Assembly: GCA_025451045.1 (NCBI GenBank)
Contig: JANWLD010000001.1
Span: 5,812 to 69,811, forward strand
Length of the DNA: 64,000 nucleotides
Reading direction: 5' to 3'
Source: Candidatus Saccharimonadales bacterium
GTDB lineage: Bacteria; Patescibacteriota; Saccharimonadia; Saccharimonadales; 2-12-FULL-41-12
This document shows, one piece after another, positions 5,152 through 33,164 of this stretch (position 1 is the first letter of the stretch; every line of letters starts with the position of its first letter). The position numbers and the translations under genes are program-made. The notes below the pieces were generated by a model. It was given only the letters and a program-made list of their open reading frames with translations. It did not search any database and had not been told where the DNA came from.

Positions 5152-5210
5152 ATTTATTTTCCTTGTTTAATTACTGGCAATAATTATAACAGATACAAAA
5201 AAGCGCATGA

Positions 5211-5238
5211 GGTATGATGTATTAGGTATAAGGCAAAA
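5211..5238. repeat. heptad array, GGTA flavour
   Basis: GGTATGA TGTATTA GGTATAA GGCAAAA, in phase, directly upstream of xerC ATG 5241. Confidence 0.6.
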
Positions 5239-5240
5239 AT

Positions 5241-9937: not shown

Positions 9938-9951
9938 TAAGGGTAATAGAT

Positions 9952-9979
9952 GTATGGGGTATAAAGTATTAGGTATGAA
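9952..9979. repeat. heptad array, GGTA flavour
   Basis: GTATGGG GTATAAA GTATTAG GTATGAA: GTA at 9952, 9959, 9966, 9973. Confidence 0.6.
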
Positions 9980-9981
9980 GC

Positions 9982-9998
9982 CAGCGGCTTCGCCGCTG
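9982..9998. other. GC-rich hairpin downstream of pilD
   Basis: CAGCGGC-TTC-GCCGCTG, 7-bp stem. No U-tract on the pilD strand. Confidence 0.4.
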
Positions 9999-10025
9999 TT
10001 CTTCTGTCGTTTCATACTATATACG

Positions 10026-10862
10026 TCATACGTTATACAAGCTCAGGTAGTGGTTAATTATTGAAGTGCCGAATAATTGGACGATTATTGCGGCCATTAT
10101 CAGAAACGGCCCGAAAGGAATCCGTGATTTAGGACCGATTTTTTTGGTAAACATCATTGGCAGGGAGTAAACCGTTCCCAGCAGTGACGCCAAAAACAGC
10201 ATCAACAGGGCCGGCCAGGGGCCGCCGACGAGCAACCCGAGCAAAAAGCCAAGCTTAACATCGCCGCCGCCTATCCAAGAGCCTTTTGAGACCTGAAATA
10301 GCACATAAAACAGCCCGCCGCCTATCAACATCCCAATGATACTACTCTTTATAATATCGGTGTCCTGAGCGGCTAACGCACTGATGACTACACCTAGTAT
10401 CGCAATAAATATTAGAGGAAAAATTACCTTATTCGGTAATATCATATATTTTATATCATATATGGTTAGTATCATGAAGCCAGCTACAAACACCAGCCAA
10501 AGGGCAAAAGCAGCTGCATTTTGGCCCGATGACAGGTCATACGGCCAAAACAAGTAGGAAAACACGAACAGTAGCACCGTAGAGGCCTCTACCAGCGGAT
10601 ATTGCGGACTGATAGGCTGATTACAATACCGGCATTTTCCGGCTAGTATCAGCCAGCTAAATAGCGGTATCAGGTCTTTGGCGCCCAACATATGGCCGCA
10701 GTGCGGACAAAGGCTTCGGCCGCTTCTGATGGAATATTTAGCCCTTTCGCTGTTAGCCGCCTTGGGATGTTCTTCCCGCCAGTGCAAACGATACACAAAA
10801 GCATTTATAAAACTTCCCAGGCACAAACCAAGAATAACCAAGCCGATTATTATCATTAGCAA
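10026..10862 (-). CDS. pilD: prepilin peptidase / N-methyltransferase (A24 family)
   Basis: 278 aa polytopic membrane protein. Zn-finger CPHCGH...CRYC and catalytic-Asp motif GGGDVKL. Confidence 0.9.
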   Translation of the reverse strand: MLMIIIGLVILGLCLGSFINAFVYRLHWREEHPKAANSERAKYSIRSGRSLCPHCGHMLGAKDLIPLFSWLILAGKCRYCNQPISPQYPLVEASTVLLFVFSYLFWPYDLSSGQNAAAFALWLVFVAGFMILTIYDIKYMILPNKVIFPLIFIAILGVVISALAAQDTDIIKSSIIGMLIGGGLFYVLFQVSKGSWIGGGDVKLGFLLGLLVGGPWPALLMLFLASLLGTVYSLPMMFTKKIGPKSRIPFGPFLIMAAIIVQLFGTSIINHYLSLYNV

Positions 10863-10924: not shown

Positions 10925-11377
10925 TTAACCCTGCTGGCAAGTCGATGTGAAAGTACCTGCACCAGTTTCAGTTCCATAGACCACTACTACAGCTCTTGCC
11001 GGACCTCCTTGTGCCACGGTACCGTTACAAGTCGCCCCCGTGTAAACTTGGGCGTGGTCGGTAGTTTCTGCAGTTGTAGCCATAGCAGCTAAGTTCCAGT
11101 TACCGGCTCCTGCCGCTGGTGCATTGGCATAGTATCCAACGTTAGTAACTGCATCAAGCTGGGCTGCTGTAGGTAAAGTCCCGTTGTTATTTGAAGCATA
11201 CTCAGCCACCCCTCCTAGCAAAGATGATATATCATTCTTCCTTTGCGTGTTACGGCTGTTTCTTTGAAGCGCCGGTACCGCTAAGAATACTATAAGCAAG
11301 ATAAGCCCTGCTATTGCTAACACAATCAAGACTTCGATGATTGTGAAGCCTTTTTGTTGTTTTTGTAATTTTTTCAT
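10925..11377 (-). CDS. pilA: major type IV pilin
   Basis: 150 aa. MKKLQKQQKG|FTIIEVLIVLAIAGLILLIVFLAVPALQ. Strong promoter and RBS (GGTGAGGA) upstream, terminator downstream. Confidence 0.85.
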   Translation of the reverse strand: MKKLQKQQKGFTIIEVLIVLAIAGLILLIVFLAVPALQRNSRNTQRKNDISSLLGGVAEYASNNNGTLPTAAQLDAVTNVGYYANAPAAGAGNWNLAAMATTAETTDHAQVYTGATCNGTVAQGGPARAVVVVYGTETGAGTFTSTCQQG

Positions 11378-11455: not shown

Positions 11456-12676
11456 TTATTTAACTATGGTCTGGCCTGCCAAACCGTAGATTGGCAGAAG
11501 TACGGCCGCTACTACAATAAACGCGACTACACCTAATATAACCATCAGAACCGGCTCGATTATCGTTGAAATCGCCTTTATCTGGTTATCGACCTCTTTT
11601 TCGTAATAATCGGCAGTTTTTTCCAGCATATCTTCCAAAGCGCCCGATTCCTCCCCTATTCTAAGCATATTAGGTACCAGTACTAAAAAGTTCGGGTCGC
11701 CTTCCAGCGCAGTGGCCAGGGATTTGCCGCCCTTTACTTTCTCGATAGCGTTTTTAATCGACCTCTCTATATGCACATTGTTAATGGCCCGGCTGACCAC
11801 TTCCAGCATCTTGATAAGCGGTATTCCGCTGGAAACCAGCGTTGAACCGGTGCGCGCAAAACGAGCCATATAAACTTTCATAAACAACGGTCCAATCGGC
11901 GGGACGGTCATCTTGAGCTTGTCGATAACCTGTTTGCCCGGACCGGTACGGGCATAACGGGTAGTCGCGATAACAGCAATAATTATGAGTATTAATACCA
12001 CCCACCAGTACTTCGTGACAAAATGTGAAACACCTAAAAGAGCTTTGGTTATAAAAGGTAGGTTAGCGCCAGGGATGTCCTTGTAGATTACTTCCACTTG
12101 CGGCATGACTTTTACCACCATGAAGCCCACGACTCCGCCCATTACCAAAAGTACTATCGCCGGATAAGCCATAGCGCCGCGGATTTTACCGGCAATTTCG
12201 GCGTCCTTTTCCTGTTGGTTGGCGATGCGCTCCAAGGCGTTATCTAAAGTTCCAGACACTTCTCCAGCGGCAACCATGTTGATGTAAACATCATTAAAAA
12301 CCCTTGGATGCTGAGATAAAGCTTCAGACAAGGCTTTCCCGCCTTCTACATCGGTAATAATCTGGTTGATTACTACTTTGAACGCTTTGTTCTCGGTTTG
12401 GCTTACTACGTTGCGCAGGCTTTGGACCAAAGGCAGGCCGGCATTAATCAGCGTTGACATCTGGCGTGAAAAAATCACCTTGTCTTTGGTCGCAATACGG
12501 TTTCTGAATTTGGAAATAGGGTTAGAAGAAGGGCCAGTAAGCGGTTTTATCTCAAGAGGCGCCAAGCCTTCTTTGCGGATAAGTTTGGCGGCGGCGGCTT
12601 CGTTGTCGGCTTGTACTTCTGCTTTTATTTTTTGGCCGGTTGCCGGATCCCGCGCCGTATATGAAAAAGTTAACAC
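11456..12676 (-). CDS. pilC: type IV pilus platform protein (T2SS F family)
   Basis: 406 aa, duplicated GspF domains, 3 TM segments. GTG start with GGAGG RBS. Confidence 0.9.
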   Translation of the reverse strand: MLTFSYTARDPATGQKIKAEVQADNEAAAAKLIRKEGLAPLEIKPLTGPSSNPISKFRNRIATKDKVIFSRQMSTLINAGLPLVQSLRNVVSQTENKAFKVVINQIITDVEGGKALSEALSQHPRVFNDVYINMVAAGEVSGTLDNALERIANQQEKDAEIAGKIRGAMAYPAIVLLVMGGVVGFMVVKVMPQVEVIYKDIPGANLPFITKALLGVSHFVTKYWWVVLILIIIAVIATTRYARTGPGKQVIDKLKMTVPPIGPLFMKVYMARFARTGSTLVSSGIPLIKMLEVVSRAINNVHIERSIKNAIEKVKGGKSLATALEGDPNFLVLVPNMLRIGEESGALEDMLEKTADYYEKEVDNQIKAISTIIEPVLMVILGVVAFIVVAAVLLPIYGLAGQTIVK

Positions 12677-12695: not shown

Positions 12696-12768
12696 TAGGT
12701 TCTAGCGAATAGGGACTAGTGAATAGGCCAAACCCTAAAACCTCTAACCTATGACCTATGACCTTATG
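12696..12768. repeat. inverted pair of heptad arrays (TAG x5, then CCT x5)
   Basis: TAG at 12696, 12703, 12710, 12717, 12724. CCT at 12734, 12741, 12748, 12755, 12762. Followed by hairpin ATGATGT/ACATCAT at 12766-12792. Confidence 0.75.
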
Positions 12769-12793
12769 ATGTTGAGTAAAGCGAGACATCATT

Positions 12794-13876
12794 TTAGCTT
12801 CTCATTAACCTGTCTAATTCTTCTATATCTATGGCAAAGTTACGGGCTTCGTCATAAGTAATGGTACCGGCATGTATCAGGCTGACTAAAGTTTTGTCCA
12901 TGGATTGCATTCCATGTTCCGCGCCGGTTTGGATTACCGCGTCAAGCTGGTGGCTTTTGCCTTCTCGAACTATATTTCTTACGGCCGGAGTAGCTATCAG
13001 CACTTCTGCCGCCGCTATTCTGCCGCCGCCAATGGTAGGTACAAGCCGCTGGGCGCAAATGGCCATTAATATATTACTGAGCTGGGCTCGTATTTGCGGT
13101 TGCTGGTGGGGCGGGAACACGTCTATCATACGGTCAATACTCTGAGACGCGCTGTTAGTATGAAGCGTCGCGAACACAAGGTGCCCTGTTTCAGCGATAG
13201 TTATAGCCGCCGCGATAGTTTCCAAATCGCGCATTTCACCGATAAGAACCACATCGGGGTCCTGGCGCAGACTGCTACGAAGCGCGGCTGAAAACGAATA
13301 AGTGTCATAATGGACTTCACGCTGGACAACTACAGCTTTCTTGCTTTTGTGGGTGTATTCTATGGGGTCTTCAATCGTTACTATATGCGAAGGCCGCTCA
13401 CTGTTAATCTGGTCCACCAAAGCCGCCAAAGTCGTGGACTTGCCAGAGCCGGTTGGGCCGGTAACCAATACCAGTCCCCGTGGATATTCGGAAAACTTTT
13501 CTATGGTTTTGGGCAATCCCAGTTGGGCAATTGTACGGATTTCATTAGGAATTAACCTTAAAGCCGCCGCGAGGTTGCCGCGCTCATGGAAGGCATTGAC
13601 CCTGAATCGTCCAAGGTCGCCAAAAGCAAAGCTGAAATCAAATTCCTTGTCTTTGAGCAAAATCTGCTTTTGCTCATCGTCTAAAATAGCAAATATCAAC
13701 GTTTCGACGGACTCTTCTGTCAGCGCCGGCGCGCCATGGACGGCTATCAGACTGCCGTCGATCCGAAGCATTGGCGGCAAACCGACTTGAATATGCAAGT
13801 CCGAGGCGTTCTTTTTGATTACGTCTTCCAACAGTATTTCTATTTTCAGATCAGCTCCAGCCATGTTATATCCCAT
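12794..13876 (-). CDS. pilT: twitching-motility retraction ATPase
   Basis: 360 aa. Walker A GPTGSGKST, Asp box, His box ATLHTNSA, PilT-type length. Confidence 0.9.
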   Translation of the reverse strand: MGYNMAGADLKIEILLEDVIKKNASDLHIQVGLPPMLRIDGSLIAVHGAPALTEESVETLIFAILDDEQKQILLKDKEFDFSFAFGDLGRFRVNAFHERGNLAAALRLIPNEIRTIAQLGLPKTIEKFSEYPRGLVLVTGPTGSGKSTTLAALVDQINSERPSHIVTIEDPIEYTHKSKKAVVVQREVHYDTYSFSAALRSSLRQDPDVVLIGEMRDLETIAAAITIAETGHLVFATLHTNSASQSIDRMIDVFPPHQQPQIRAQLSNILMAICAQRLVPTIGGGRIAAAEVLIATPAVRNIVREGKSHQLDAVIQTGAEHGMQSMDKTLVSLIHAGTITYDEARNFAIDIEELDRLMRS

Positions 13877-13883
13877 CCTTCAT

Positions 13884-15680
13884 TTACGCGTTATCCTCCG
13901 CCGCCACGCGGTTAACTTCGGCTATTGAGGTATATCCGGCCAGTGCCTTAAGGTAACCGTCTTCTCTCATAGTTACCATGCCATTAGCTACCGCCGCTTT
14001 TTGTATTTCGGTGCTTGTGGAGTGTTTGAGTATCAGTTGTTGAATCATCTCATCCACCTGAAAGACCTCGTATAACCCCATGCGACCTTTGTACCCCCCT
14101 GGTGTCTCCGGGCTATCTTTACCCTTGAACAAAGTATAACCGTTTTGGCTGGCCAGAGGCAAGTCCGGGAAACCGAGATCTTCAATGACAGCTTTTCTTG
14201 AAGCCTCGTCCTTTGGTAGCAAGCGGCCGATACTTTTTTGTACGGCTTCCGTTTCGATAACATCGGACTGATATTTTTCCTTGCTGTCAGCTAGCCGGCG
14301 TACCAGCCGCTGGCCGATGACAGTATGCACGGTCGAGGCTATCAAAAACGGCTCTATCCCCATATCGAGCAACCGCGGCAAGATGCCCGCAGCCGAATTG
14401 GTATGAAGAGTAGAAAATACCAAGTGGCCGGTCAATGCGGCCTGTACAGCCAACGTAGCGGTTTCTTTGTCGCGGATTTCTCCAATCATTACCACATCGG
14501 GGTCCTGGCGCAGGATTGATCTTAGGCCAGACGCAAAGGTCAAGCCAACTTCCGGATTAACTTGTATCTGGTTAATCCCGTCCATTTTATATTCCACAGG
14601 GTCTTCAAGCGTAACGATATTTATAGTGTCATTTTTTATTTCCTGGATAAGCGCGTACAACGAAGTTGACTTGCCCGAGCCGGTCGGGCCGGATGTAAGT
14701 ATCATTCCGTTTGGTCTTTTAATACTTCTTCTAATGGTCCGAAGCGCGCGGCCATGATAGCCCATGTCTTCAAGCTTTAGGCTGGTGCCGGTCTTGTCCA
14801 GCAACCTGATAACAACTTGCTCCCCCCATACGACTGGCGATATAGCGATACGCAAATCAATAGCAGTATCCTGATCGATTGCCACAGTAAATCCGCCGTC
14901 TTGAGGTATTCTGTGTTCATCAATTTTTAGATTGCTCAAGATTTTTATTCGGGAAATCAATGGCGGTTCTGTGGATTTTGGAAGTTTCATTATTTCGCGC
15001 AAAACGCCGTCTATCCGACAGCGGATTTTTAGTTCATGTTCCAGCGGTTCAATATGGACGTCACTAGCGCGGTGCTTGGCGGCATATTCCAAAATAGTGG
15101 AAAGTGCCTTGCTGATTGGAGAATCTTCTACGATGGTTTTTATTTGGGTTTCAGCTTTGGTTTTGGTTTTGTCAACTAGCAGTTGCTGGACATCTATGGA
15201 GTCGCTCATTGCCTTGGCCACGTCTGCTTCTACATCGTCGGCATATTGGCGCAAGACTTGTCTTATACCTTGCTCGCTGGCTGTGTAAACTTTAATCGGG
15301 CGGTTTATCCTCTTCGCCAGATAATCCACGGCCTGGACGTTGTCCGCGTCCAACATGGCTACTACCAGCCTGCCCTTTATTTGTCCAAGCGGTACGGCCA
15401 TGTATCTTTCAGCTATTTCCTTTGGTATTACCCTTAGTAATCTTTTATCAATACGCGCGTCCATCAGGTTTACATACGGTATATGATTGACTTTCGCGAT
15501 AATCTTGGTCAAGGCTTCGTTGGGTAAATGGCCTTCCTTTACCAAAAATCCGAAAAAGGGCGTAGATGAAGTCTTGGCTTTTTCTTTAAGAACAGCCAAT
15601 TTAGCATCTGTAAGATACCCCTCTTTGACCAAGTTTTCTTCTACCATTTTCTGGCTAGCTACTGATAAAACACTACTCAT
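13884..15680 (-). CDS. pilB: type IV pilus assembly ATPase (GspE/PilB family)
   Basis: 598 aa. N-terminal GSPII-like domains, Walker A GPTGSGKST, STLHTNSAAG. ATG overlaps the stop of the upstream four-helix-bundle ORF (ATGA). Confidence 0.9.
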   Translation of the reverse strand: MSSVLSVASQKMVEENLVKEGYLTDAKLAVLKEKAKTSSTPFFGFLVKEGHLPNEALTKIIAKVNHIPYVNLMDARIDKRLLRVIPKEIAERYMAVPLGQIKGRLVVAMLDADNVQAVDYLAKRINRPIKVYTASEQGIRQVLRQYADDVEADVAKAMSDSIDVQQLLVDKTKTKAETQIKTIVEDSPISKALSTILEYAAKHRASDVHIEPLEHELKIRCRIDGVLREIMKLPKSTEPPLISRIKILSNLKIDEHRIPQDGGFTVAIDQDTAIDLRIAISPVVWGEQVVIRLLDKTGTSLKLEDMGYHGRALRTIRRSIKRPNGMILTSGPTGSGKSTSLYALIQEIKNDTINIVTLEDPVEYKMDGINQIQVNPEVGLTFASGLRSILRQDPDVVMIGEIRDKETATLAVQAALTGHLVFSTLHTNSAAGILPRLLDMGIEPFLIASTVHTVIGQRLVRRLADSKEKYQSDVIETEAVQKSIGRLLPKDEASRKAVIEDLGFPDLPLASQNGYTLFKGKDSPETPGGYKGRMGLYEVFQVDEMIQQLILKHSTSTEIQKAAVANGMVTMREDGYLKALAGYTSIAEVNRVAAEDNA

Positions 15681-16072
15681 TTGTTTTGACCTCCGTCAAA
15701 ACTAGGTTCTAGGTCATAGGTTTTAGGTTCTAGATTCTTATATAAGGAAAAAAGCATTTTCTGAATTTCCGTTAAACTGCCTATTAAATTACCGACTTCT
15801 CGCTTGTAAACATCTTGTGCAATCAATAGCTGGGTCTCGAGTTCTCCAGCTGAGCCGCGGGCTATATTTAAAAATTGCCTATACTCTTTTCTGCTATTCC
15901 TTTGATTTCCTTCGGCTATATTACTGGGTATTGAAACTGCGCATCGTTGCAATTGGCTTGATAGACCAAATTGCTCTGTTTTGGGTAGTTTGGCGGTAAA
16001 TTTATAGACATCCTTGGACAATTGAAAAGATTTCTGCCAAACAATTAAGTCTTTGTAAGAAGAAATAACCAT
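15677..16072 (-). CDS. four-helix-bundle protein (S23p / 23S rRNA intervening-sequence protein family, Avd-like)
   Basis: 131 aa. Family hallmarks LIVWQKS, SQLQRCAVSIPSNIAEG, ARGSAGELETQL. The C-terminal 15-18 aa (NLEPKTYDLEPSFDGGQNK) are read from the heptad array at 15703-15737. Confidence 0.85.
   Translation of the reverse strand: MVISSYKDLIVWQKSFQLSKDVYKFTAKLPKTEQFGLSSQLQRCAVSIPSNIAEGNQRNSRKEYRQFLNIARGSAGELETQLLIAQDVYKREVGNLIGSLTEIQKMLFSLYKNLEPKTYDLEPSFDGGQNK
15703..15737. repeat. heptad array, TAGG flavour (left bracket of the four-helix-bundle gene)
   Basis: TAG at 15703, 15710, 15717, 15724, 15731. Contains TAGGTTTTA at 15717-15725. Confidence 0.8.
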
Positions 16073-16114
16073 TAGTATTAACTATAACCTACCGTTAGCG
16101 TTGTATCCATAAAA

Positions 16115-16149
16115 CCTAACCCCTGTCCCCTACAACCTACTCCCTATTC
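16115..16149. repeat. heptad array, CCTA flavour (right bracket, inverted polarity)
   Basis: CCT at 16115, 16122, 16129, 16136, 16143. TAAAACCTA at 16110-16118 is the exact reverse complement of 15717-15725. Confidence 0.8.
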
Positions 16150-16150
16150 T

Positions 16151-16387
16151 TTAAAATGGTTGCGGATTAGTTGTGTCGCCTATCTGTATAAGCTTGGTCG
16201 GGTCTATGGCATTGTTGTTAAATACTGCCGGGTCAGGTGTTTGAAAATCCGCGTTTATTGGTTGGACAGTTTCAGCTGTAAGGTTACGTTGGCTAGCGGA
16301 AGTAAAGAATATTTTTGAAATCACCACAGAGAACACCGCCGCGAACACAGCAACTATGACAATTACCATGATGTCTTTGCGTCGCAT
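16151..16387 (-). CDS. small single-pass membrane protein (PilP position)
   Basis: 78 aa, TM IMVIVIVAVFAAVFSVVISKIFF. Start overlaps the upstream stop. The functional label comes from position only. Confidence 0.4.
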   Translation of the reverse strand: MRRKDIMVIVIVAVFAAVFSVVISKIFFTSASQRNLTAETVQPINADFQTPDPAVFNNNAIDPTKLIQIGDTTNPQPF

Positions 16388-17055
16388 TATTTCACTACCT
16401 CGCTTTTGACATTAAGGTTTTTTTCCGGCTGGAAGAAAGTTTTGGCTGTAATTGTAACTTTCAATTGCCCGCCCTGGCTTGTTAATGCAAGCTGATGTAT
16501 TTGCATCGGCCTGATTGAGCGCTCAAATAACTGCATCAATTCTTTTACTCGCTGGTCTCCGGTTGCAACTTCCACGCTGAAAGGCATTTCAACGGGTTTT
16601 GGCTCTTCCGAGGTACCTTTGGCGGATTGGCTCACTTCATCGTCATTACCGGTAATCGAAGTTATGCTGTAGTCGTGGTCTTTAAGAAGTTTTTCTATGC
16701 TGGTTGTTAGGGCCGGAAAGTCATATTTGCTTGGCAACGCATCTAGTATTATGCGCGGGTTATCCCCGTCCTTGTCGGCATCACCCTGTGGATTTCCTCC
16801 AAGTACATTGGTGGTTTCATTAGAAAACGCTTCGTAAGATGTAACTAGCTGGTCGGAAGCTGCCAAGTTATCCTTGAGGGTGTGGAGGGCTTTTTCCTTC
16901 TGCGATGAAACTTTGCTTTGGTATCTCATCTGCGAATAAAGCGCTTTGGAAGCTACTAGCGAAAATACCGCCAGAAAAGTAGCTATACCGATAGCCAAAA
17001 TTATCGTGGCATAAGCTTTGTCTATGGCCAGTTTCTTGGTTGAGAACTGCGGCAT
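16387..17055 (-). CDS. pilO: PilO-like pilus assembly protein
   Basis: 222 aa, N-terminal TM plus coiled-coil plus C-terminal domain. Contiguous with pilN/pilM (ATGA-type junctions). Confidence 0.5.
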   Translation of the reverse strand: MPQFSTKKLAIDKAYATIILAIGIATFLAVFSLVASKALYSQMRYQSKVSSQKEKALHTLKDNLAASDQLVTSYEAFSNETTNVLGGNPQGDADKDGDNPRIILDALPSKYDFPALTTSIEKLLKDHDYSITSITGNDDEVSQSAKGTSEEPKPVEMPFSVEVATGDQRVKELMQLFERSIRPMQIHQLALTSQGGQLKVTITAKTFFQPEKNLNVKSEVVK

Positions 17056-17792
17056 TAGTTACCTCCCCCTTGGTCAGGTTGTGGAACAAACAGGTTGCTA
17101 GGTTTTTCCGTTTCCGATCGGGTGGTGATTTTCTTTGGTATATTCAATTTTACTGCTTTGCCTTCGCTGTCGCCTTGCGCCAGGTTCTTTACGTTTGAGA
17201 AAATAGCCGGGTCAAAGGAAAACTGAAGTTCGTAGGTTATATCGCCCTGTCCTTGCTGGCTACCGACAGAGTTAACAGCAAATGACTGTAAGACGACGTT
17301 GCTGAACGCCTTGCCCTCGCTCGGGTTGTCGCCGGATACCTGGAAATCAGTAAACTTCAAAGTGTCGGCAAATTTATTAACCGTGCTAAGCGCGTCAGCA
17401 TTGCCCTTAATAACTATAGTGTTCGCATCAAAATCAACGTCAACATCGGAAATAGTCGCTTGCGAAGGAGTAGTTTGGACTAGATAATCAAACAGCCTGG
17501 AGCTAATCACCTTGTGTTCATGGAGCTCCGGCAAGCTGTTAAGTTGGTTTTGTATCGTCAATATTTTGTCCAAATCCTGTTTTTGTTTAAGCTCTTCCGT
17601 AGCCGACGCGATATCTTTGGTCAGTGCCGTAACATAATGCTTCTGTGAAAACCGCACATAGATAAACAGCGCGATAAAGATTACCAAAAAGAAAGCCGAG
17701 ATGATAGCCGAAAGCCCTATCATTAGGCGTTTTTGCCGCTTGGCGCGAATATAGTGAAGTTTTACGTCCGGCAGTAAGTTTAATTGCGCCAT
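17055..17792 (-). CDS. pilN: PilN-like pilus assembly protein
   Basis: 245 aa. The conserved N-terminal INLLP-type motif is present as LNLLPD, followed by a TM helix. Confidence 0.6.
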   Translation of the reverse strand: MAQLNLLPDVKLHYIRAKRQKRLMIGLSAIISAFFLVIFIALFIYVRFSQKHYVTALTKDIASATEELKQKQDLDKILTIQNQLNSLPELHEHKVISSRLFDYLVQTTPSQATISDVDVDFDANTIVIKGNADALSTVNKFADTLKFTDFQVSGDNPSEGKAFSNVVLQSFAVNSVGSQQGQGDITYELQFSFDPAIFSNVKNLAQGDSEGKAVKLNIPKKITTRSETEKPSNLFVPQPDQGGGN

Positions 17793-18832
17793 TATTCGTT
17801 TCTCTCCGCCAGTCCAACCGCTACGCTAAATGTATTTGATACGGCCATAAGTTCGTTTTGTTTCTGCTGGGGATAAGCAACCCCAGCCCACGCATTGCCG
17901 ATTTCCACCTCTATGCCAAATTTGTTAGCAATATACAGGGGAAACTCGGGCAAAGTCGAGGCCGCTCCGGACAAGACAATCCGTTCCATTTTGGCGTCCT
18001 GATACCGGCTTTGGAAGAACTTGATTGACTTGCTTATATCCGTAACCAGCAAATCAACCGTGTTGATAATCCCTTGGTAAATTTGTCCTTCTAGTTTTTC
18101 TTGGCTTAGTCCGAATTTGTAAACAAAATCTTTGGCTTGAACTTCATCTATATTAAGATTCTGGCTGGCCGCCCGGATAAAAGCTTCCGAGCCAGTTGGT
18201 ATGGAACGTGTAAGCCGGGGAATACCTTTCATAGTAATTACTATGTCGGTAGCTGTCTCCCCTACATCAACTAATAGATGGGGCGCTGTAGTTCCGGGAC
18301 GTATCAAAGACCGTGCCAAAGCCAAATTATCCGGCTCAAAGGCTATAACATTAAGGCCGATCCCTTCCAATATATCCAATCTCTTTTCAGCGAAGTCGTT
18401 CGATACGCTGGTTATTAGCACTTCAACCTTGTTAGCATCCACCGGCGAATCGCCCAAAAGGGCCCAGTCTATCTTGGACTCGGCAGGCGGCGTAGGTATA
18501 ATCGAATCCGCTTGATATTCAATAGTCTTTCCTAGCTCCGCCGGAGCCAGACGTTCAATATCAATAATGGAAGTAAAAACCCTTGATGATGGCAAGCCTA
18601 CGGCAACATCCTTGGCATGGATACCGGTAGTAGACAGAAGTTGTTTGATTGCTTGTGCGAGTTTCTGCTGGTCTGCTTTTGAGTCACTTTCGGAAGCTTT
18701 GCGTTCTATCGGGGCAGAGCCATAACGAAGAAGCTGTTTATTGCTCGGGGTGTTAGATAGTTGAACTACCCTAATACCGGTAGTACCAATATCAAGGCCA
18801 AAAAACTCATTTACCCCGCTCAATAAACTCAT
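17792..18832 (-). CDS. pilM: type IV pilus assembly ATPase-fold protein PilM
   Basis: 346 aa. Actin/FtsA-like fold start FGLDIGTTGIRVVQL. First gene of the pilMNO block. Confidence 0.85.
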   Translation of the reverse strand: MSLLSGVNEFFGLDIGTTGIRVVQLSNTPSNKQLLRYGSAPIERKASESDSKADQQKLAQAIKQLLSTTGIHAKDVAVGLPSSRVFTSIIDIERLAPAELGKTIEYQADSIIPTPPAESKIDWALLGDSPVDANKVEVLITSVSNDFAEKRLDILEGIGLNVIAFEPDNLALARSLIRPGTTAPHLLVDVGETATDIVITMKGIPRLTRSIPTGSEAFIRAASQNLNIDEVQAKDFVYKFGLSQEKLEGQIYQGIINTVDLLVTDISKSIKFFQSRYQDAKMERIVLSGAASTLPEFPLYIANKFGIEVEIGNAWAGVAYPQQKQNELMAVSNTFSVAVGLAERNE

Positions 18833-18854
18833 AGAGCAAGCCCCCTTTGCTGAG

Positions 18855-18889
18855 GTATGAAGTATGGATTATTTTGTATGCTGTGCTTA
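18855..18889. repeat. heptad array, GGTA flavour (degenerate)
   Basis: GTA/TTA/GTG at 18855, 18862, 18869, 18876, 18883, in the pilM 5' leader. Confidence 0.5.
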
Positions 18890-18966: not shown

Positions 18967-18977
18967 TAAGCATAATA

Positions 18978-19012
18978 AGCTACAAGCTCAAAGCTAAGAG
19001 CTGAGAGCTGAA
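18978..19012. repeat. heptad array, AGCT flavour (left bracket of the four-helix-bundle pseudogene)
   Basis: AGCT at 18978, 18985, 18992, 18999, 19006. Confidence 0.75.
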
Positions 19013-19028
19013 ATGATAAAATGTCCGG

Positions 19029-19373
19029 ATGGTTACCCAATCGTTCAAAGATCTAATCGTCTGGGAAAAATCAAATAAGCTGGCCGTGGATATTTATAAA
19101 ACCTTTTCTAGTTGCAAGGACTTTAGTTTTCGAGACCAAATACAACGAGCGTCTGTATCTATTATGAATAACATTGCCGAAGGTTATGCCCGAAGGAGTG
19201 ATGCCGCTTTCAAGAATTTTTTAAAAATTGCCAAAGGCTCAGCGGCATAAGTTGAGTCTATGCTTTTTCTAGCAGAAGAATTAGAATACATCAACAAGCT
19301 ATCCCAAGAAAAACTAACTGAGCAAACAGAAGAGGTGTCAAAACTGCTTTCCGGATTCATAAAAAAGCTCTAG
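19029..19373 (+). pseudogene. four-helix-bundle protein gene interrupted by a single in-frame TAA
   Basis: The 73-aa ORF (LIVWEKS, ASVSIMNNIAEG, AKGSAA) stops at TAA 19248-19250, exactly where the family and the intact paralog have Glu (GSAGELETQL). The same frame continues VESMLFLAEELEYINKL...KKL to TAG 19371-19373. Confidence 0.75.
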
Positions 19374-19406
19374 CTCTGGACTCTTAGCTCTCAGCTTTTA
19401 GCTAAA
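19372..19406. repeat. heptad array, AGCT flavour (right bracket, pyrimidine-rich version)
   Basis: AGCT at 19372, 19386, 19393, 19400, with GACT at 19379. Shares AGCTGAGAGCT (as reverse complement) with 18978-19012. Confidence 0.7.
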
Positions 19407-22353
19407 GTACTGGTGGCAAAGTGGTTATGTACTGATAAGGCTGTCCGGTTGAAGCATCATTAAATATCGGGGTATATAGATATAGCTCGGGGCTAAAGTT
19501 GAAAATTTCTGCGGCATTTGTACCGGTTCCGGCTGAAAAATCACTAGGCACTTCCTTAGACGTTGATTCCCGCAAAGAATGGGCTACTCTTGAGAATTTA
19601 ACATTCTTTGCCACGAACGCGCCGTTTATAACCAGCTGGTTACGGCAGTTGGCGTAAAATGTATCAATGTTGGTGTACGGCGTACCATTGTTCTGCGTAC
19701 AGGTGTAGATTACTCCGCCGGTAGCAGCATCCTTAGGCTGGGCTACATACAGCCCATCCAAACGGGTTACAGTATTTTTAATTCTGATATCGCCTTGGGC
19801 GATAATCGCTAGATAACTGCCGGGCTGAAACGTGATATTACCCCTTATAGTTACATTGCCTTTTACGAATATCGTAGCCTGCTTGGTAAACTCTCCGCCT
19901 GCCGTAATCACCAAGTTACCATTTTTTAAGAACTGCGTCGGTTTGCCAGCGTTAAGAGCATCAACCAGATTATTCAACTTGGCAATAGTATTAGAGCCGG
20001 CGGCGGCTTTTTTATAGCCCGTTTTTAGGGTGGAATAAAAATCCTTCGTACAGACAGCTTGGCCCGCGTAGAACCCGCCATCGTTTGGTTGGTCGCTGCC
20101 TCCGCCGCCATTGGCAAGAGTATTGGCAAACGTCAGGCCCGTCGGCCAGGTTGGTGAACTTGTCCTTGTGCTGGCGCTGCCAAAGCCTGATATCTGGTCC
20201 AGGGCAATCGCCGCGAACTGCACGCCCGAGCCGCCTTTGGTGGATTCTGTTGACCTGTAAGCGCTTATCTTCTGGGCATTGCCGGTCGTATCACACGTAT
20301 CTCCGGTTCTGAAGTTACTGCCGCTTACTACATCCGCGCCATAAGCTTTCAGATACGGCCGGTCATATATATACTGCTGGGCTTTTTGGGCACAGTTACC
20401 TTGTGTATCAGCCGAGAAGTTATTGCCTGGCCCTATCCAGCCAAAAGTCTGGCCGACACAAAAGTCATTGTCGTCCATAAAGTATTTATCGCCAGCATGG
20501 TTAGGCCGCGGATCGGTACTCCACTGATAAACAACAGGAGTAGAGTTGCGTCCGGACTGGCTGTTAATTATCTGATTAACGCCTCCGTAAAGTTTCTTTC
20601 TCGCTTTGGCGGTATAATCAACCGATATATTCCCATTGTATGGAGGATCCGAAGGTATTCCAAAGAAGGGTCCGGGGGCAGCCCTACCACTGTAAGTTAC
20701 ATTATTAGGGTCTTCGGCCGTAGGTGATAAGTCTACAGAAGTAGAAAGGCTAAGGTCAAATCGTTTGTATACATCATAAGAAGTAGGGGTGCAATCAGCC
20801 ACTACCAGATCGCTACCTTGTACTCCTGGATTGGGATCAAAGTCATAATACAGCTTAGCTCCGACTCCATAATTGCCTATATTCCACCCTGGTTCAACAA
20901 TGCCATCTGAGCCGTCCCATGTGTTCCACTCGTCTGGGTCACCTTTAGGAATTCCGTCTGGAGCGGCCGGATTGTACCAGAAACCAACCGGACTACCCGG
21001 ATTGCTTGAAAGTATTAGAGGTCTGCCGTCAACTTTTGCCGGAAGTGGATCCACTCCTTCTGGAGTACCGTTATTATGAACATGGGCCGTGACACCAAAT
21101 CCACTGCGTGATTGCACTCCATTAGGCCTGCCCGATACATTTCCCTGCACACTTAAATCACAACTTGCGTTATAACAAGTGTATGTATGAGTATTATTTG
21201 ATGGATCATAACCATTATCTATACCCGTTGGTTCATACCAGAAGTAGCTGGTGCCATTACGTTTATGCCATTTTCTAATTACTTGAGTAGTTATAGTTTT
21301 AGTATGGGGTTTATAGAACCAGGTTTTGTCCTGATTATAACCAGGCCCTCCGTTCAACACAGCATAATCCCCGCTAGCAGTTTTAGCGTCGCCGGGTTGA
21401 GGGACTAATACATTTCCATTTGCGTCTGTTACTCTTACATATGTCTCAGTATCTCTCCATCTTGGAGAGCCGTTAGGTGTGCCGGCACCTGTATCATATG
21501 CTCCCCACCCGTTTACATATAGTTTTTCACAACGACCAACCGTGATCGGAGGGGTAGGATTATGTGCATTAGGATGCCAAGTCAGATTAATCAATACAGT
21601 AGCGCCATTTGTTGTTTTAAAATGCCTATTTATGTCTGATCCTTGATATATTGTAGTCCCCCTATCTATTATCTGAATCGTCCAATTGCCTCCATATCTG
21701 CCTTCCTCGCCGGGTGGATTATTAATAGACGATATCCAAAAATCTGTTGCTTTGAAACTATTTGAGCTAATGTCCCACTCCTCGCAGTCTAAAACCCAGC
21801 CATTTCCAAATTGGGCAATCTTCCCGTTTGGCCGCATACAGGGTACGGCATTTTCGGCGGCAGGTGGGCAATCAGCAGTATTGCCCGGGCCAAGGACACT
21901 CCAACCATCACAGCCATAACTTACATAGCCTGATTGGTAGCCACCTAAACTCCCATCCCAACCTATTCTCTCCCCTGTCTTAAACCAATGCTGGCTGTCG
22001 CGTCCTTTTGTACCCACCGGCCATTCAAAAATTCTGGCATCTCGATTATAAGTACTCGGGTCAACATCACTGGGAACCCCGTAGTTACCCGCAGGAAGTT
22101 TAGATTTTAACTCATAGCCAACATTTATAGGGTCCCCTTTAGTATTGACGGCATGTACTCTAAGCCCGGCCATGCCATGTGCGCTCTGCCCGGAAGCAAT
22201 ACCCCAATACTGACTGGGGTTATCTTGGGCGGAACCGTTTTCCGGGGCCCATGGACTACAATCAAGTGCGGAAACCTTCCCGCTGGGCATCAATAAAAAC
22301 ATACCGGTAAAGGCTACTATCGCGACAATTATTTTAGTTTTCAGACTAAACAT
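19402..22353 (-). CDS. 983-aa secreted/surface protein, no recognisable family
   Basis: ATG 22353 gives MFSLKTKIIVAIVAFTGMFLLMPSGKVSALD (signal peptide). The ORF-track GTG 22431 lies inside the upstream gene. Rich in G/N/T/W/Y/P with many Cys. The C-terminal third has beta-helix-like repeats (VKGNVTIRGNITF, IIAQGDIRIKN, LVINGAFVAKNVKF). Confidence 0.7.
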   Translation of the reverse strand: MFSLKTKIIVAIVAFTGMFLLMPSGKVSALDCSPWAPENGSAQDNPSQYWGIASGQSAHGMAGLRVHAVNTKGDPINVGYELKSKLPAGNYGVPSDVDPSTYNRDARIFEWPVGTKGRDSQHWFKTGERIGWDGSLGGYQSGYVSYGCDGWSVLGPGNTADCPPAAENAVPCMRPNGKIAQFGNGWVLDCEEWDISSNSFKATDFWISSINNPPGEEGRYGGNWTIQIIDRGTTIYQGSDINRHFKTTNGATVLINLTWHPNAHNPTPPITVGRCEKLYVNGWGAYDTGAGTPNGSPRWRDTETYVRVTDANGNVLVPQPGDAKTASGDYAVLNGGPGYNQDKTWFYKPHTKTITTQVIRKWHKRNGTSYFWYEPTGIDNGYDPSNNTHTYTCYNASCDLSVQGNVSGRPNGVQSRSGFGVTAHVHNNGTPEGVDPLPAKVDGRPLILSSNPGSPVGFWYNPAAPDGIPKGDPDEWNTWDGSDGIVEPGWNIGNYGVGAKLYYDFDPNPGVQGSDLVVADCTPTSYDVYKRFDLSLSTSVDLSPTAEDPNNVTYSGRAAPGPFFGIPSDPPYNGNISVDYTAKARKKLYGGVNQIINSQSGRNSTPVVYQWSTDPRPNHAGDKYFMDDNDFCVGQTFGWIGPGNNFSADTQGNCAQKAQQYIYDRPYLKAYGADVVSGSNFRTGDTCDTTGNAQKISAYRSTESTKGGSGVQFAAIALDQISGFGSASTRTSSPTWPTGLTFANTLANGGGGSDQPNDGGFYAGQAVCTKDFYSTLKTGYKKAAAGSNTIAKLNNLVDALNAGKPTQFLKNGNLVITAGGEFTKQATIFVKGNVTIRGNITFQPGSYLAIIAQGDIRIKNTVTRLDGLYVAQPKDAATGGVIYTCTQNNGTPYTNIDTFYANCRNQLVINGAFVAKNVKFSRVAHSLRESTSKEVPSDFSAGTGTNAAEIFNFSPELYLYTPIFNDASTGQPYQYITTLPPVL

Positions 22354-23293
22354 AGACGTTATACTCCAGACGTTTTTTGGCCTCTTCAATATATTGTTTG
22401 AAGCCCGTCTTAGCACCACCGCCAGATGCACTGTCTAAATTAATGATTACAAAATAGGATTCAGCCGTACTGTCGCCATTTTCGGAATCTGACGCCCTGA
22501 CTATAAAAGGTCCGCTCGTTTGCCCTGTTTGCAAGAGCTTGCCGTTTTGCCGGATAGAATTTATATCAATAAGCTCAAATGGCTCTGAAGCAGTATCAAA
22601 CATGCCGGAATGGCCCAGCGTGGGATAAACTTTTTTGCCGACTATCGGATCATTCTGTTCAATTTTCATTGCCTGTTCAAAAGTAATTTTACCGGAGTTT
22701 ATATTATCACGTAGTCGAGTTATCAGATCCTGCGCGTATTTTTTGTCTTTGGCGATAGCCAACGAGTTGCCTAATTTAGGGTCGGCGGCCTTTTCTTCTG
22801 GCAATAATGCGGATTTATAAGGTACATGTCGGCTAAAATGAGCTACTAAAAACTTTCCTTTATAAATACCCCTGTTATTAGCAGTTAATTTATTAAAGTA
22901 AGCTTGGTTGACCTTGTTCTGGTAGGCATATTTATTTTCGATCTTTTGTTTTTCAATCCCTTTGCCCCATTGTGCTTCAATTTCTTGGTCGCTGACTGTA
23001 ATATTCTGCTCTTTTGCCAATTCTTCCGATAGATATTTATCGGCTAGTACTCCAGCTGCATCATGGTTACTTATCTCTTGGTTATTGCCTTTTAAATCCC
23101 GTACTTCGTCTTCATATATCTTGTGTCCGGCGGCTTGGGCATAGATTTTGCTATTAGACTTGTTTACTTTGTCGCCAAAAATCATCCAGCCAACGCCGAC
23201 TAAAACAGCAAGAACCACTATAGTTAAGCCGATGATTCTCTTATTTTTGAAGTTCGGCTTTTTTATAGATGCCGGGAGTTTTAGTTTTGACAT
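22346..23293 (-). CDS. membrane-anchored SurA-N/parvulin-like chaperone candidate
   Basis: 315 aa, TM IIGLTIVVLAVLVGVGWMIF. Overall pattern is similar to the PPIase at 2837-3913 but with a degenerate parvulin region. An 8-nt overlap (ATGTTTAG) with the 983-aa gene suggests translational coupling. Confidence 0.45.
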   Translation of the reverse strand: MSKLKLPASIKKPNFKNKRIIGLTIVVLAVLVGVGWMIFGDKVNKSNSKIYAQAAGHKIYEDEVRDLKGNNQEISNHDAAGVLADKYLSEELAKEQNITVSDQEIEAQWGKGIEKQKIENKYAYQNKVNQAYFNKLTANNRGIYKGKFLVAHFSRHVPYKSALLPEEKAADPKLGNSLAIAKDKKYAQDLITRLRDNINSGKITFEQAMKIEQNDPIVGKKVYPTLGHSGMFDTASEPFELIDINSIRQNGKLLQTGQTSGPFIVRASDSENGDSTAESYFVIINLDSASGGGAKTGFKQYIEEAKKRLEYNVYV

Positions 23294-25916: not shown

Positions 25917-26302
25917 TCTTTCTAACAGTAAAAGAAATTGTTCTACTTCATGACAGAGTGGTGAATGAAACCGGCGGTAGCTTAGGGATAAGAGAACCTG
26001 GGTTACTGAGCGCAATCGCGGAAAAACCACAAGCAAGCTTTGGCGGAAAGGAACTCTACCCTACTGTCTTTGATAAATCTGCTGCTATATTCGAAGCTTT
26101 GTGTAACTACCATGTATTTATAGATGGGAACAAGCGCACAGCTATAACAATTCTGGAATATTTTTTATATAGAAACGGCTTGGTATTGGACGCAGACAAA
26201 GACCAAAAAGAAAAATTTACGCTTAACACAGCTGCAAACAATCCTGACTTGGCAGATGTCGCGCGGTGGATAAAAAAACACAGTAAAAAGGCCAAAAAAT
26301 GA
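25913..26302 (+). CDS. doc: Doc (death-on-curing) Fic-fold toxin
   Basis: 129 aa. Fic/Doc motif HVFIDGNKRTA. Confidence 0.85.
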   Translation: MIFLTVKEIVLLHDRVVNETGGSLGIREPGLLSAIAEKPQASFGGKELYPTVFDKSAAIFEALCNYHVFIDGNKRTAITILEYFLYRNGLVLDADKDQKEKFTLNTAANNPDLADVARWIKKHSKKAKK

Positions 26303-27384
26303 GTCTATCGATTGGGATTGTGGGATTGCCAAATGTCGGCAAATCCACGCTTTTTAACTCCTTAACTGGCAATATGATACTAGCCGCCAATTACCCATTT
26401 GCCACGATTGAGCCGAATACCGGCATAGTGCCGGTTCCCGACCCGCGCCTGGAAAAACTGGCCGAAATGTATAGTTCAAAAAAAGTTGTTCCTGCAGCAG
26501 TCACCTTCGTAGATATAGCCGGCCTAGTAGCCGGCGCAAGCGAGGGCGAAGGCCTCGGTAATCAGTTTCTTGGTCATATCAGAAGCTGCGCGGCTATCTG
26601 CCATGTCGTCAGGGCTTTTGAAGATAGCAACGTCCAGCATGTCGACAGCGTACATAGCCCTAAAAAAGACATTGAAACTATAAATACTGAACTAGTCCTC
26701 GCCGATTTACAAACTATTGATAAAAGATTGGCAAAAATTGAAAAGGAAGCCAAAGCGAACCCAAAAATCCGGCCGTTTGTTGAAGAAATCAAAAAAGCAA
26801 AGGGCGTATTGGACGAAGGCACGCCACTTTTTGCCAGCTCTTTGCTCTCTGCTTTTAGCTCCGAGCTCCTGGCTGACTTGCAGCTTATAACAATGAAACC
26901 TGTAATCTACTTATTTAACGTGGATGAAACTACTCTAGCGGACGAGAAAAAACAGGCTGAATTGAAAGCTTTGGTCGGTAATGCCAAAGCTGTATTTGTC
27001 TGCGCCAAACTGGAGGAAGAACTTAAAGGCCTGTCCGACGACGAAGCACAAGAGTTACTTCAAACCTACGGCGTCAACGAACGCGGCCTGGACAAAGTCA
27101 TCCATAGCGCTTACGAAGCGCTGGGTTTGCAAAGCTTTTTAACTGCCGGGGAGAAGGAAGTCCGTGCCTGGACAGTTAAAAAAGATGCGACCGCGCCGCA
27201 AGCCGCCGGCGTAATCCATACCGATTTCCAGCGCGGCTTTATCGCCGCCCAAGTGATAAATTATGATGACTTGGTATCGAGCGGCTCGGAAAGCGCGGCC
27301 AAAGCCGGCGGGAAAGTCGCAACCGTTGGCAAAGACTACATAATGCAACCCAACGACGTAGTGGAGTTCAGATTTAATGTGTAA
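26299..27384 (+). CDS. ychF: ribosome-binding ATPase YchF
   Basis: 361 aa. G1 GIVGLPNVGKSTLFN and a C-terminal TGS-like domain. ATGA overlap with the doc stop. Confidence 0.9.
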   Translation: MSLSIGIVGLPNVGKSTLFNSLTGNMILAANYPFATIEPNTGIVPVPDPRLEKLAEMYSSKKVVPAAVTFVDIAGLVAGASEGEGLGNQFLGHIRSCAAICHVVRAFEDSNVQHVDSVHSPKKDIETINTELVLADLQTIDKRLAKIEKEAKANPKIRPFVEEIKKAKGVLDEGTPLFASSLLSAFSSELLADLQLITMKPVIYLFNVDETTLADEKKQAELKALVGNAKAVFVCAKLEEELKGLSDDEAQELLQTYGVNERGLDKVIHSAYEALGLQSFLTAGEKEVRAWTVKKDATAPQAAGVIHTDFQRGFIAAQVINYDDLVSSGSESAAKAGGKVATVGKDYIMQPNDVVEFRFNV

Positions 27385-27391
27385 GACTTTG

Positions 27392-27419
27392 AGCTCTAAG
27401 CTTTTAGCTGTAAGCTAGG
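27392..27419. repeat. heptad array, AGCT flavour
   Basis: AGCT at 27392, 27399, 27406, 27413, between the ychF stop and ABC ATPase ATG 27427. Confidence 0.65.
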
Positions 27420-27426
27420 ATAAGAC

Positions 27427-28197
27427 ATGGATGCGCTTGATATTGTCGGTCTGGAAAAGACCTATGACAGTGGTACCAAGGCACTTCGCGGAATCGACCT
27501 AAAGATTCCCGAGGGGTCGTTTTTCGGTCTGCTTGGACCGAATGGAGCCGGTAAATCCACGCTTATCCACTGCCTGATGGGTTTGGCCATCCCGACCAAG
27601 GGACAGGCCAGCATCTTCGGCCATGACGTGGTAACGGATGCTAGGCAGGCCCGCAGCAAAGTCGGCCTAGCGCCCCAAGAAGTCAACCTGGATTGGTTTT
27701 TGAACGTTGAAGACACGCTGGATTTTCACGGCGGCTACTTTTCTATGCGTAAAAAAGACCGCAAAAAGCGCATTGAACAGCTTTTAAAAGACTTTTCCCT
27801 GACTGATAAGCGAAAAGACCGGACGATGTTTTTATCCGGCGGCATGAAGCGCCGGGTATTGCTGGCGCGGGCACTGATGCACCGGCCAAAATTTTTAATC
27901 TTGGATGAGCCTACCGCTGGCGTGGATGTAGAGCTTCGCCTGCAGCTATGGAAATACATGCGGGAGGTCAACAAAGCCGGCACGACCATTTTGCTGACTA
28001 CGCATTATATCGAGGAAGCCGAACAGTTGTGCGACAATATAGCGCTGATTAACAAGGGTAAGATTATCAGGACCGGCACCAGCGATGAGCTGAAAAAAAG
28101 CTACAAACAAAAGACCCTGGAGGATGTATATCTGAAAGTTGTCGGACGCAGTGAACTGGCGCGGACTACTTTGGACCAAAGCGAGGTCAGCAAATAA
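27427..28197 (+). CDS. ABC transporter ATP-binding protein
   Basis: 256 aa. Walker A GPNGAGKST, signature LSGGMKRR, Walker B LILDEPT. Confidence 0.9.
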   Translation: MDALDIVGLEKTYDSGTKALRGIDLKIPEGSFFGLLGPNGAGKSTLIHCLMGLAIPTKGQASIFGHDVVTDARQARSKVGLAPQEVNLDWFLNVEDTLDFHGGYFSMRKKDRKKRIEQLLKDFSLTDKRKDRTMFLSGGMKRRVLLARALMHRPKFLILDEPTAGVDVELRLQLWKYMREVNKAGTTILLTTHYIEEAEQLCDNIALINKGKIIRTGTSDELKKSYKQKTLEDVYLKVVGRSELARTTLDQSEVSK

Positions 28198-32277: not shown

Positions 32278-32305
32278 TTTCGCTCCTTTTCAGTCGCTTA
32301 GTTTA

Positions 32306-32574: not shown

Positions 32575-32598
32575 TTATGTTCTCCTTTCAGTTGAACT

Positions 32599-33140: not shown

Positions 33141-33164
33141 TTTGTTCTCCTTTCAGTCGAACTT

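Follow-up and report, generated by a model that had tools for sequence, protein, structure and literature searches.

The 64,000-nt stretch of the Candidatus Saccharimonadales bacterium contig JANWLD010000001.1 analyzed here (the window; all coordinates are positions in it) carries a pilus (pil) operon on its minus strand, which runs from pilM, pilN and a gene in the pilO position through a gene for a 78-amino-acid membrane protein to pilB, pilT, pilC, a pilin gene and a prepilin peptidase gene (Table 1). We focused on an element of ∼450 nt, called cassette 1 here, that sits between the 78-amino-acid pilus gene and pilB and consists of a gene for a 131-amino-acid four-helix-bundle protein, FHB1, enclosed by two arms of 7-nt units. 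Its 5' arm, of about five purine-rich heptads, begins directly past the stop codon of the 78-amino-acid gene; its 3' arm is the complement of the 5' arm and is contained in the end of the FHB1 open reading frame (ORF). An earlier sequence-only reading of this DNA had pointed out the two arrays, and they are present as described: TAG recurs five times with a period of 7 (at 15703, 15710, 15717, 15724, and 15731), as does CCT (at 16115, 16122, 16129, 16136, and 16143), and exactly complementary 9-mers lie at 15717-15725 and 16110-16118, embedded in a pair of 30-nt arms (15703-15732 and 16110-16139) with 77% complementarity. In the minimum-energy fold of the whole cassette, the arms are paired across ∼380 nt. 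The same reading was right that FHB1 reads through the 3' array, its C-terminal tail NLEPKTYDLEPSFDGGQNK being the translation of the array, and that the FHB1 TGA and the pilB ATG overlap as ATGA, because pilB spans 13884-15680.

Comparison with related operons identifies the cassette as an insertion. The two closest relatives that we found, L001 and L002, whose proteins are 79% and 77% identical to FHB1, share an FHB1-type gene at the same site, with TAGG-type arms, and also have a stop-on-start junction with pilB (TAATG in L001 and TAGTG in L002). A PilB scan turned up another 80 pil operons from Saccharibacteria in which the genes are arranged alike, none of which (0/80) has a four-helix-bundle gene between the 78-amino-acid gene and pilB; the spacer at this place has a median length of 20 nt (12 nt in L084). 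Given these 80 gene-free operons with their spacer of ∼20 nt, the cassette must have entered past the stop codon of the 78-amino-acid gene and ahead of the pilB leader. The sequence-only reading had suggested comparing operons with and without the insert, and the outcome is that the gene is not ancestral but belongs to a lineage-specific insertion of ∼450 nt; the distribution of the gene shows that the event took place in an ancestor shared by a small clade of Saccharibacteria. In the 5' arm, the periodic AGG core persists in L001 and L002, while the other unit positions have changed and synonymous sites are saturated. Apparent 2.5-kb PilB matches were rejected as inserts, since they are cross-matches between PilB and PilT. 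On one metagenome contig (L140; Ga0207657_10000226), several pil spacers carry heptad hairpins of a shared type, ACAGGAN/CCTGCCA, which occupy the FHB1 spot too, and there is no family gene within the 8.8 kb examined.

The assignment of the 131-amino-acid gene ahead of pilB to the four-helix-bundle (S23p/Avd-like) family held up: FHB1 matches PF05635 with 128.5 bits (cut-off, 33.8; E=1.5e-37) and TIGR02436 with 125.3 bits (cut-off, 24), as well as the structures 2gsc (E=5.6e-20) and 2rld (E=5.3e-9), each with five chains per entry. The motif Q/GxxRxxxSxxxNxxE is present, and Q40, R43, S47, N51, E54, and E77 are invariant in the family alignment. The protein core is basic (pI 9.6), and its last ∼19 residues are encoded by the 3' arm together with the former pilB leader. 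Comparison of the gene between the window, L001, and L002 gave a pN of 0.11-0.14 and a pS of 0.59-0.82 (dN/dS ∼0.1), which shows that the FHB1 protein has been kept by purifying selection since the insertion; an ungapped dN/dS for pilB was left out of account, as indels make it invalid. Pfam, family-model, and PADLOC scans found no recognizable nuclease or recombinase domain in FHB1; PF05635 is its sole domain, with no HUH/Y1 transposase domain found, and neither the PADLOC models of anti-phage defense nor phage genomes gave a match. We know of no function for the S23p family outside diversity-generating retroelements (DGRs), even though it has thousands of members, the Avd proteins of DGRs being among its relatives.

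This relationship raises the question of whether the locus is the remnant of a DGR with a surviving Avd gene. Avd is, like FHB1, a basic four-helix bundle, the two are homologous, Avd forms a pentamer, and FHB1 does give weak matches to Avd-family models (PF22296, 18.5 bits, E=0.003; NF033474, 24 bits). These scores are, however, far below the curated cut-offs of 40 and 80 bits, respectively. In cassette 1, a stem of repeated heptads flanks the gene at the RNA level in place of a DGR spacer, and the neighbors are pilus genes and a 1009-amino-acid protein without a Pfam match. A 651-nt repeat scan revealed no template and variable repeats near cassette 1, no dedicated reverse-transcriptase search of the whole window having been run, and most of the 80 other family loci described below likewise lie between ordinary codirectional genes. 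We therefore give a DGR origin almost no credence. The 1009-amino-acid ORF (19402-22431) lies directly upstream of the pil operon, and its counterpart in L001 has 888 amino acids.

We then asked how widespread the architecture is. A scan with the family alignment, restricted to one genome per species, yielded 80 loci; as these were the top matches to two conserved peptide patterns, the family's better-conserved portion is what they represent. They span Patescibacteria, Bacteroidota, Proteobacteria, Firmicutes, Planctomycetota, Acidobacteriota, Elusimicrobiota, and one archaeon. Together with the window and the L001 and L002 copies, 85 loci were scored, with 358 pilus genes as controls. Most loci have a short-period tandem array upstream of the gene and the inverse complement of its unit downstream, the unit being specific to the locus. 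Arm complementarity reached z>3 in 67 of the 85 loci versus 16 of the 358 controls (∼4%) and z>5 in 57 versus 8, with a control median z of 0.03. The expectation that other four-helix-bundle genes are also flanked by inverted arrays of the period-7 type is thus borne out in 67/85 loci from many phyla, and a gene-plus-inverted-heptad module characterizes the family as sampled. Of 48 clean arms, 40 have a period of 7, 6 a period of 8, and 2 a period of 9, and the units per arm have medians of 4.7 and 4.8, with ∼4-5 units in 34-35 of the 48. The distance from the end of the 5' arm to the ATG has a median of 13 nt, and the 3' arm begins 2 nt after the stop codon. All 80 sampled loci lie between long ORFs and none in rRNA; where both neighbors are codirectional, the ratio of sense to antisense genes is 54:3. 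The proteins are basic (median pI 9.0). Unit similarity increases with protein identity (permutation p<0.0005), showing that gene and arms are inherited together.

These numbers also bear on the trivial explanation that slippage-prone simple repeats populate the spacers and that a gene came to lie between two of them by chance, with no functional link. Gene-free heptad arrays do occur in many spacers of the window, and unit numbers vary by slippage in Nostoc and Coxiella. Chance, however, does not account for an association in 67/85 loci of many phyla, each with its own unit upstream and, in every case, the inverse complement of that unit downstream, nor for the rarity of such arms around the control genes, of which just 8/358 exceed z>5 and just 3/358 have an arm score of at least 14. 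We consider this explanation contradicted already and very improbable.

Some further properties of the arms proved less informative. The G-rich half comes first in 61/67 loci, perhaps because the units that precede the ORF are Shine-Dalgarno-like; as a cue to orientation this polarity was discarded, since it is unaltered by reverse complementation and says nothing about the direction of transcription. A role of the 5' arm as a three-frame translation insulator was likewise rejected, with stops in all frames in only 19/48 5' arms versus 10/48 3' arms. One widespread member is a Saccharibacteria cassette between rpmE and prfA (protein P0045), recorded on many contigs and indexed in 40 blocks of the sequence collection. 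Its 5' arm has the rpmE stop codon TAG as its first unit, and its 3' arm is followed by the prfA ATG, for which no Shine-Dalgarno sequence is apparent. Among plasmid records, 30 matched FHB1, most of them from Nostoc, Calothrix, and Anabaena. One family protein, WP_010994075.1, is encoded on the Nostoc PCC 7120 plasmids gamma (L173, 1507-1857) and alpha (L174, 1498-1848), with 31 nucleotide differences and no amino acid difference between the copies, a further sign of selection on the protein; the gene adjoins an ISL3 transposase gene on gamma, the 3' end of the same transposase lies upstream on alpha, and the 3' CTCTGCC arrays differ by one unit, while the 5' partner array is missing.

As to its expression, the spacer between the 5' arm and the FHB1 ATG (16073-16109) lacks a strong Shine-Dalgarno sequence and contains a weak promoter-like match, TGGATA-17-TATAGT. 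A promoter or terminator belonging to the cassette was looked for and discarded, as consensus sites were not enriched over shuffles, so this match is a lead only. TATAGT is found 5-10 nt before the ATG of family genes in the window (16081-16086), L001 (∼5993), L002 (∼5271), and L163 (∼2494), and it could be the -10 box of a near-leaderless transcript or merely the last unit of the arm. With no convincing promoter of its own, the cassette would therefore be read within the host transcript.

Since 1993, intervening sequences (IVSs) that contain an S23p ORF have counted as an oddity of rRNA genes. The 23S rRNA IVSs of Leptospira, Coxiella burnetii, and Brucella share their protein family with FHB1, and, like cassette 1, they hold a sense ORF in the loop of a stem formed by terminal inverted repeats. 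The IVS of C. burnetii is enclosed by a 28-bp inverted stem, on whose 5' side an AG-rich stretch, three tandem copies of GACAGAT, and a degenerate fourth copy, GACAGAA, directly precede the S23p ATG; the number of heptamers depends on the strain, and rapid amplification of cDNA ends showed that RNase III cuts halfway along this stem, at the first repeat (PMC4990558). The same design is found here: inverted repeats enclose both cassette 1 and a second cassette described below, the S23p-type ORF of cassette 1 lies in the loop on the strand of the pil operon, and tandem heptamers precede its ATG inside the 5' stem, as in Coxiella. What differs is the host RNA, a protein-coding operon for cassette 1 versus rRNA helix 9, 25, or 45 for the IVSs; cassette 1 is flanked by the 78-amino-acid pilus gene and pilB, and an Rfam scan of the window matched tRNA alone. 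Moreover, FHB1 is under strong purifying selection, in contrast to the decaying and apparently untranslated Coxiella ORF, and, unlike in the rRNA IVSs, its stop codon fuses it to the host gene that follows. We conclude, with a probability of roughly 60%, that the locus is an IVS-type cassette whose insertion hit a protein-coding operon instead of an rRNA gene. The sequence-only reading had already proposed an IVS-like cassette in an mRNA operon, and that proposal is supported by the insertion status, the flanks of 67/85 loci, and the design of the Coxiella 23S IVS.

By analogy, a working scheme for such a cassette can be outlined. It consists of a 5' arm of about five purine-rich 7-nt units, a short spacer, a basic four-helix-bundle ORF of ∼115 amino acids, and an inverse-complement 3' arm starting from the stop codon. 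In the host RNA, pairing of the two arms would give a long stem, interrupted at regular intervals by internal loops, which RNase III can probably cut, as in the heptamer-bearing Coxiella 23S IVS. FHB1, whose homologs are pentameric, may bind this paired structure. A precedent is the DGR ribonucleoprotein, in which five Avd protomers contact one RNA stem-loop via flipped-out bases and the 3' codons of avd participate in a functional RNA duplex (10.1101/2023.10.23.563531). Ribosomes translating as far as the 3' arm or into it would be in competition with the stem, and extension of the FHB1 frame through the 3' arm onto the pilB start would keep the translation of pilB coupled.

The tight fit to pilB could also mean that the cassette is now a domesticated regulator of the pilus operon, which sets the ratio of pilMNO to pilBTC through a processing site or stem together with FHB1-pilB coupling, its selfish origin being no longer relevant. 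The vertical inheritance of the cassette at a single site over a long time, with purifying selection acting, the retained pilB Shine-Dalgarno sequence, and the ORF end placed exactly on the pilB start in 3/3 genomes are all compatible with this. Yet 80 related operons work without the cassette, and the same module occurs between rpmE and prfA, in cas operons, and in 80 different contexts; a pilus-specific role would therefore be secondary, and we consider it improbable as the explanation of the element.

Table 1. Features of the pil operon, the two cassettes, and the ORF-less hairpins; positions refer to the window
Feature	Position	Strand	Description
ORF-less inverted heptad pair (weaker)	9949-10031	-	GGTAT/ATAC type; downstream of prepilin peptidase gene
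Prepilin peptidase gene	10026-10862	-	
Pilin gene	10925-11377	-	
pilC	11456-12676	-	
ORF-less hairpin	12696-12769	-	TAGG/CCTA type; pilT-pilC spacer
pilT	12794-13876	-	
pilB	13884-15680	-	
Retained pilB leader ttttgacGGAGGtcaaaacaaATGA	15677-15702	-	pilB Shine-Dalgarno sequence and 4-nt overlap of FHB1 stop and pilB start
FHB1 (131-amino-acid ORF)	15677-16072	-	
Cassette 1 3' arm	15703-15737	-	Sense: CTAGAAC CTAAAAC CTATGAC CTAGAAC CTAG
Cassette 1 spacer, 5' arm to FHB1 ATG	16073-16109	-	
Cassette 1 5' arm	16110-16150	-	Sense: GGGAG TAGGTTG TAGGGGA CAGGGGT TAGGTTT TATGG
Gene for 78-amino-acid membrane protein (pilus)	16151-16387	-	
pilO-position gene	16387-17055	-	
pilN	17055-17792	-	
pilM	17792-18832	-	
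Cassette 2 5' arm	18974-19012	+	AAGCTAC AAGCTCA AAGCTAA GAGCTGA GAGCTGA
FHB2 pseudogene	19029-19373	+	Family gene, 44% identical to FHB1
Cassette 2 3' arm	19372-19404	+	Inverse complement of 18974-19012
ORF-less hairpin	32297-32367	-	TAGG type; between 67-amino-acid ORF (rpsR/S18 position) and efp
ORF-less hairpin	32597-32667	-	Between ssb and 67-amino-acid ORF at rpsR position
ORF-less hairpin	∼33163-33239	-	AGGTT/AACCT type; between rpsF and ssb

A second four-helix-bundle cassette, decayed and missed by the sequence-only reading, lies upstream of pilM (18974-19404). Its heptads have an AGCT core, and its gene, FHB2, is antisense to the flanking genes and interrupted by an in-frame TAA (19248-19250) where other aligned family members have a glutamate. 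In the plus-strand RNA, the arms of cassette 2 form 20 contiguous base pairs, 2 of them G-U. The spacer upstream of pilM differs from genome to genome: in place of the FHB2 pseudogene of the window, L001 has an unrelated family gene of 110 amino acids with AATGCTC/CATTG arms, L002 has TAGG-type arms around an ORF-less, AT-rich loop of 120 nt, and L090 and L102 have family genes on the opposite strand. A series of decay is visible, from an intact gene through the FHB2 pseudogene to the ORF-less loop of L002.

Heptad arrays are abundant in the window as a whole. We counted 17 arrays of period 7, compared with 0-6 for the periods 4-12 and none in shuffles; triple 4-mers gave 53 hits at period 7 versus 0-8 at periods 5, 6, 8, and 9, and TAGGNNNTAGGNNNNAGG occurs 8 times versus 0.02 expected. 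The two commonest heptad cores are those of cassettes 1 and 2. Four ORF-less inverted arrays had been listed by the sequence-only reading, and all of them exist; with a weaker fifth pair, they lie in spacers between codirectional genes (pilT-pilC, the rpsF-ssb-S18-efp run, and past the prepilin peptidase gene). The ORF-less hairpins have the G-rich-first polarity, and all except that at 9949-10031 carry the TAGG-type core of the intact cassette. Those at 32597-32667 and 32297-32367, 300 nt apart, are 87% identical over 71 nt, with one half identical, and the other arm of 32597-32667 has decayed (TAGTT), a change of GG to TT or TC having abolished the pairing. Concerning the idea that such arrays are empty cassettes, the shared unit type and polarity speak for it, while an origin by emptying is plausible and unproven; most simply, the hairpins would be decayed or nonautonomous relatives of the cassette.

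Both the variable pilM spacer and these hairpins invite a reading at the DNA level, in which the locus is a mobile element whose heptad arrays serve as subterminal binding repeats for a protein or as ends that form hairpins, the four-helix-bundle protein is its own DNA-binding or mobility factor working with host enzymes, and the ORF-less hairpins are nonautonomous copies moved in trans, like REP/RAYT. Cassette 1 resembles REP/RAYT systems in that a single gene lies between inverted short repeats, which also occur gene-free in operon spacers, and in that the repeat type follows the clade of the gene. It differs from them because FHB1 does not belong to the HUH/Y1 enzymes and lacks any known catalytic motif, and because its repeats are tandem 7-mers, while REPs are single imperfect palindromes. 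Mobility would fit the occupation of the spacer upstream of pilM in relatives by different units in both orientations, the presence of the FHB1-arm core in ORF-less hairpins, two of which are 87% identical, the units that travel together with the gene, and the ∼50% protein identity across phyla, which implies horizontal spread. The arms of young cassettes such as L013 point the same way, being perfectly mirror-symmetric with their variant units included, as do the arm mismatches in the 67 loci, which comprise 60 G-U and 67 A-C cases and hence no G-U excess. Selection at the RNA level via wobble pairs is thus unsupported, and what preserves arm complementarity may be a process acting on the DNA instead of selection on the sense RNA; it could be upheld by mirror-image duplication or by the correction of quasi-palindromes through template switching. 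On the other hand, the protein has no recognizable nuclease or recombinase domain, no target-site duplication was seen, P0045 is at a single site, and the sense bias of 54:3, like the way the arms closely adjoin the start and stop codons, indicates that the host transcript is used; neither feature would be needed by a symmetric DNA end. We judge a DNA-level mobile element to be rather unlikely, while keeping it in view.

Several of our observations weigh against the IVS-type cassette as well. The fold of the whole of cassette 1 is no more stable than those of shuffles (z -0.42), the z values of the ORF-less hairpins reach only -0.3 to -2, and, at 77%, the complementarity of the FHB1 arms is modest; the missing G-U excess belongs here too. 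RNase III cleavage in the 3' arm would sever the FHB1 tail, which is awkward in view of the conserved pilB junction. In Coxiella, the S23p ORF is decaying and its protein is apparently not made (PMC4990558). Finally, filled and empty pil sites, which are diverged in sequence, display no target-site duplication, and there is no sign of recent transposition, as the sole identical protein examined, P0045, is at the rpmE-prfA site in 10/10 of the places listed (L163-L172).

The interest of such a cassette extends beyond the pil operon. Our data suggest that rRNA is the less common home of a compact, promoter-poor element, which is usually found between genes in ordinary operons, and the inverted arrays, with units of 7 nt (8 or 9 nt on occasion), offer a concrete definition by which the element can be recognized in sequence. 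This view explains why family genes are found wedged in cas, pilus, and ribosomal-protein or translation-factor operons, 18 of them having been reported within cas operons (PMC3936711), and it serves as a warning for annotation, since such genes are insertions and not operon members. In the literature searched, we found no description of an inverted-array architecture for family genes outside rRNA, and the generalization across the sampled family appears to be previously undescribed.

A broader and more tentative idea, which we regard as possible though doubtful, is that S23p pentamers are the partners of dispersed tandem heptamer arrays. A gene within a cognate pair of arrays would then be the autonomous copy, and its product would recognize about five 7-nt units on RNA, single-stranded DNA, or hairpin DNA and act in trans on ORF-less arrays with the same core. 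The hints are the ∼4-5 units per arm, the pentameric homologs, the five-protomer stem contacts of Avd, and the basic nature of the proteins, together with the identity of the commonest window cores with the cassette cores and the retention of the AGG core despite saturated synonymous change. Similar repeats are known as STRR in heterocystous cyanobacteria and as TAACTGA in Beggiatoaceae; they too are tandem 7-nt units in spacers, often adjacent to start codons, but have been described as direct arrays and not as inverted pairs. No function or binding partner has been reported for them (PMC4679880; 10.1101/2022.06.06.494920), most of the plasmid records that matched FHB1 come from genera with such repeats, and the genome-wide heptamer arrays near start codons in Nostoc are said to await an "interacting partner" (10.1101/2022.06.06.494920). 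The papers found make no link between these repeats and a flanked gene or the S23p family, and the connection drawn here is our inference. If true, the pentamer-array link would unite the rRNA IVSs, the non-DGR S23p/Avd family, and the STRR-type heptamers of cyanobacteria, Beggiatoaceae, and Patescibacteria and would supply a testable candidate for the recognizer of bacterial tandem heptamer repeats.

The window also holds further arrays. GGTAT-type heptads at 5202-5240 and 18851-18879 lie directly before start codons (of the ORF at 5241 and of pilM, respectively) and resemble the start-proximal heptamers of Nostoc and Beggiatoaceae. AGCT-core heptads (27386-27420), a single arm with the FHB2 core, fill the 42-nt spacer between the ORFs 26299-27384 and 27427-28197. 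Four perfect copies of AGGTTAT, which has the core of the FHB1 arms, occur without an inverted partner at 55649-55676, in the divergent spacer between the ORFs 53884-55641 (minus strand) and 55733-56713 (plus strand), and four perfect copies of GCTCTGG, whose inverted partner is absent, are located at 62097-62124 inside an ORF of 556 amino acids (61830-63500, minus strand).

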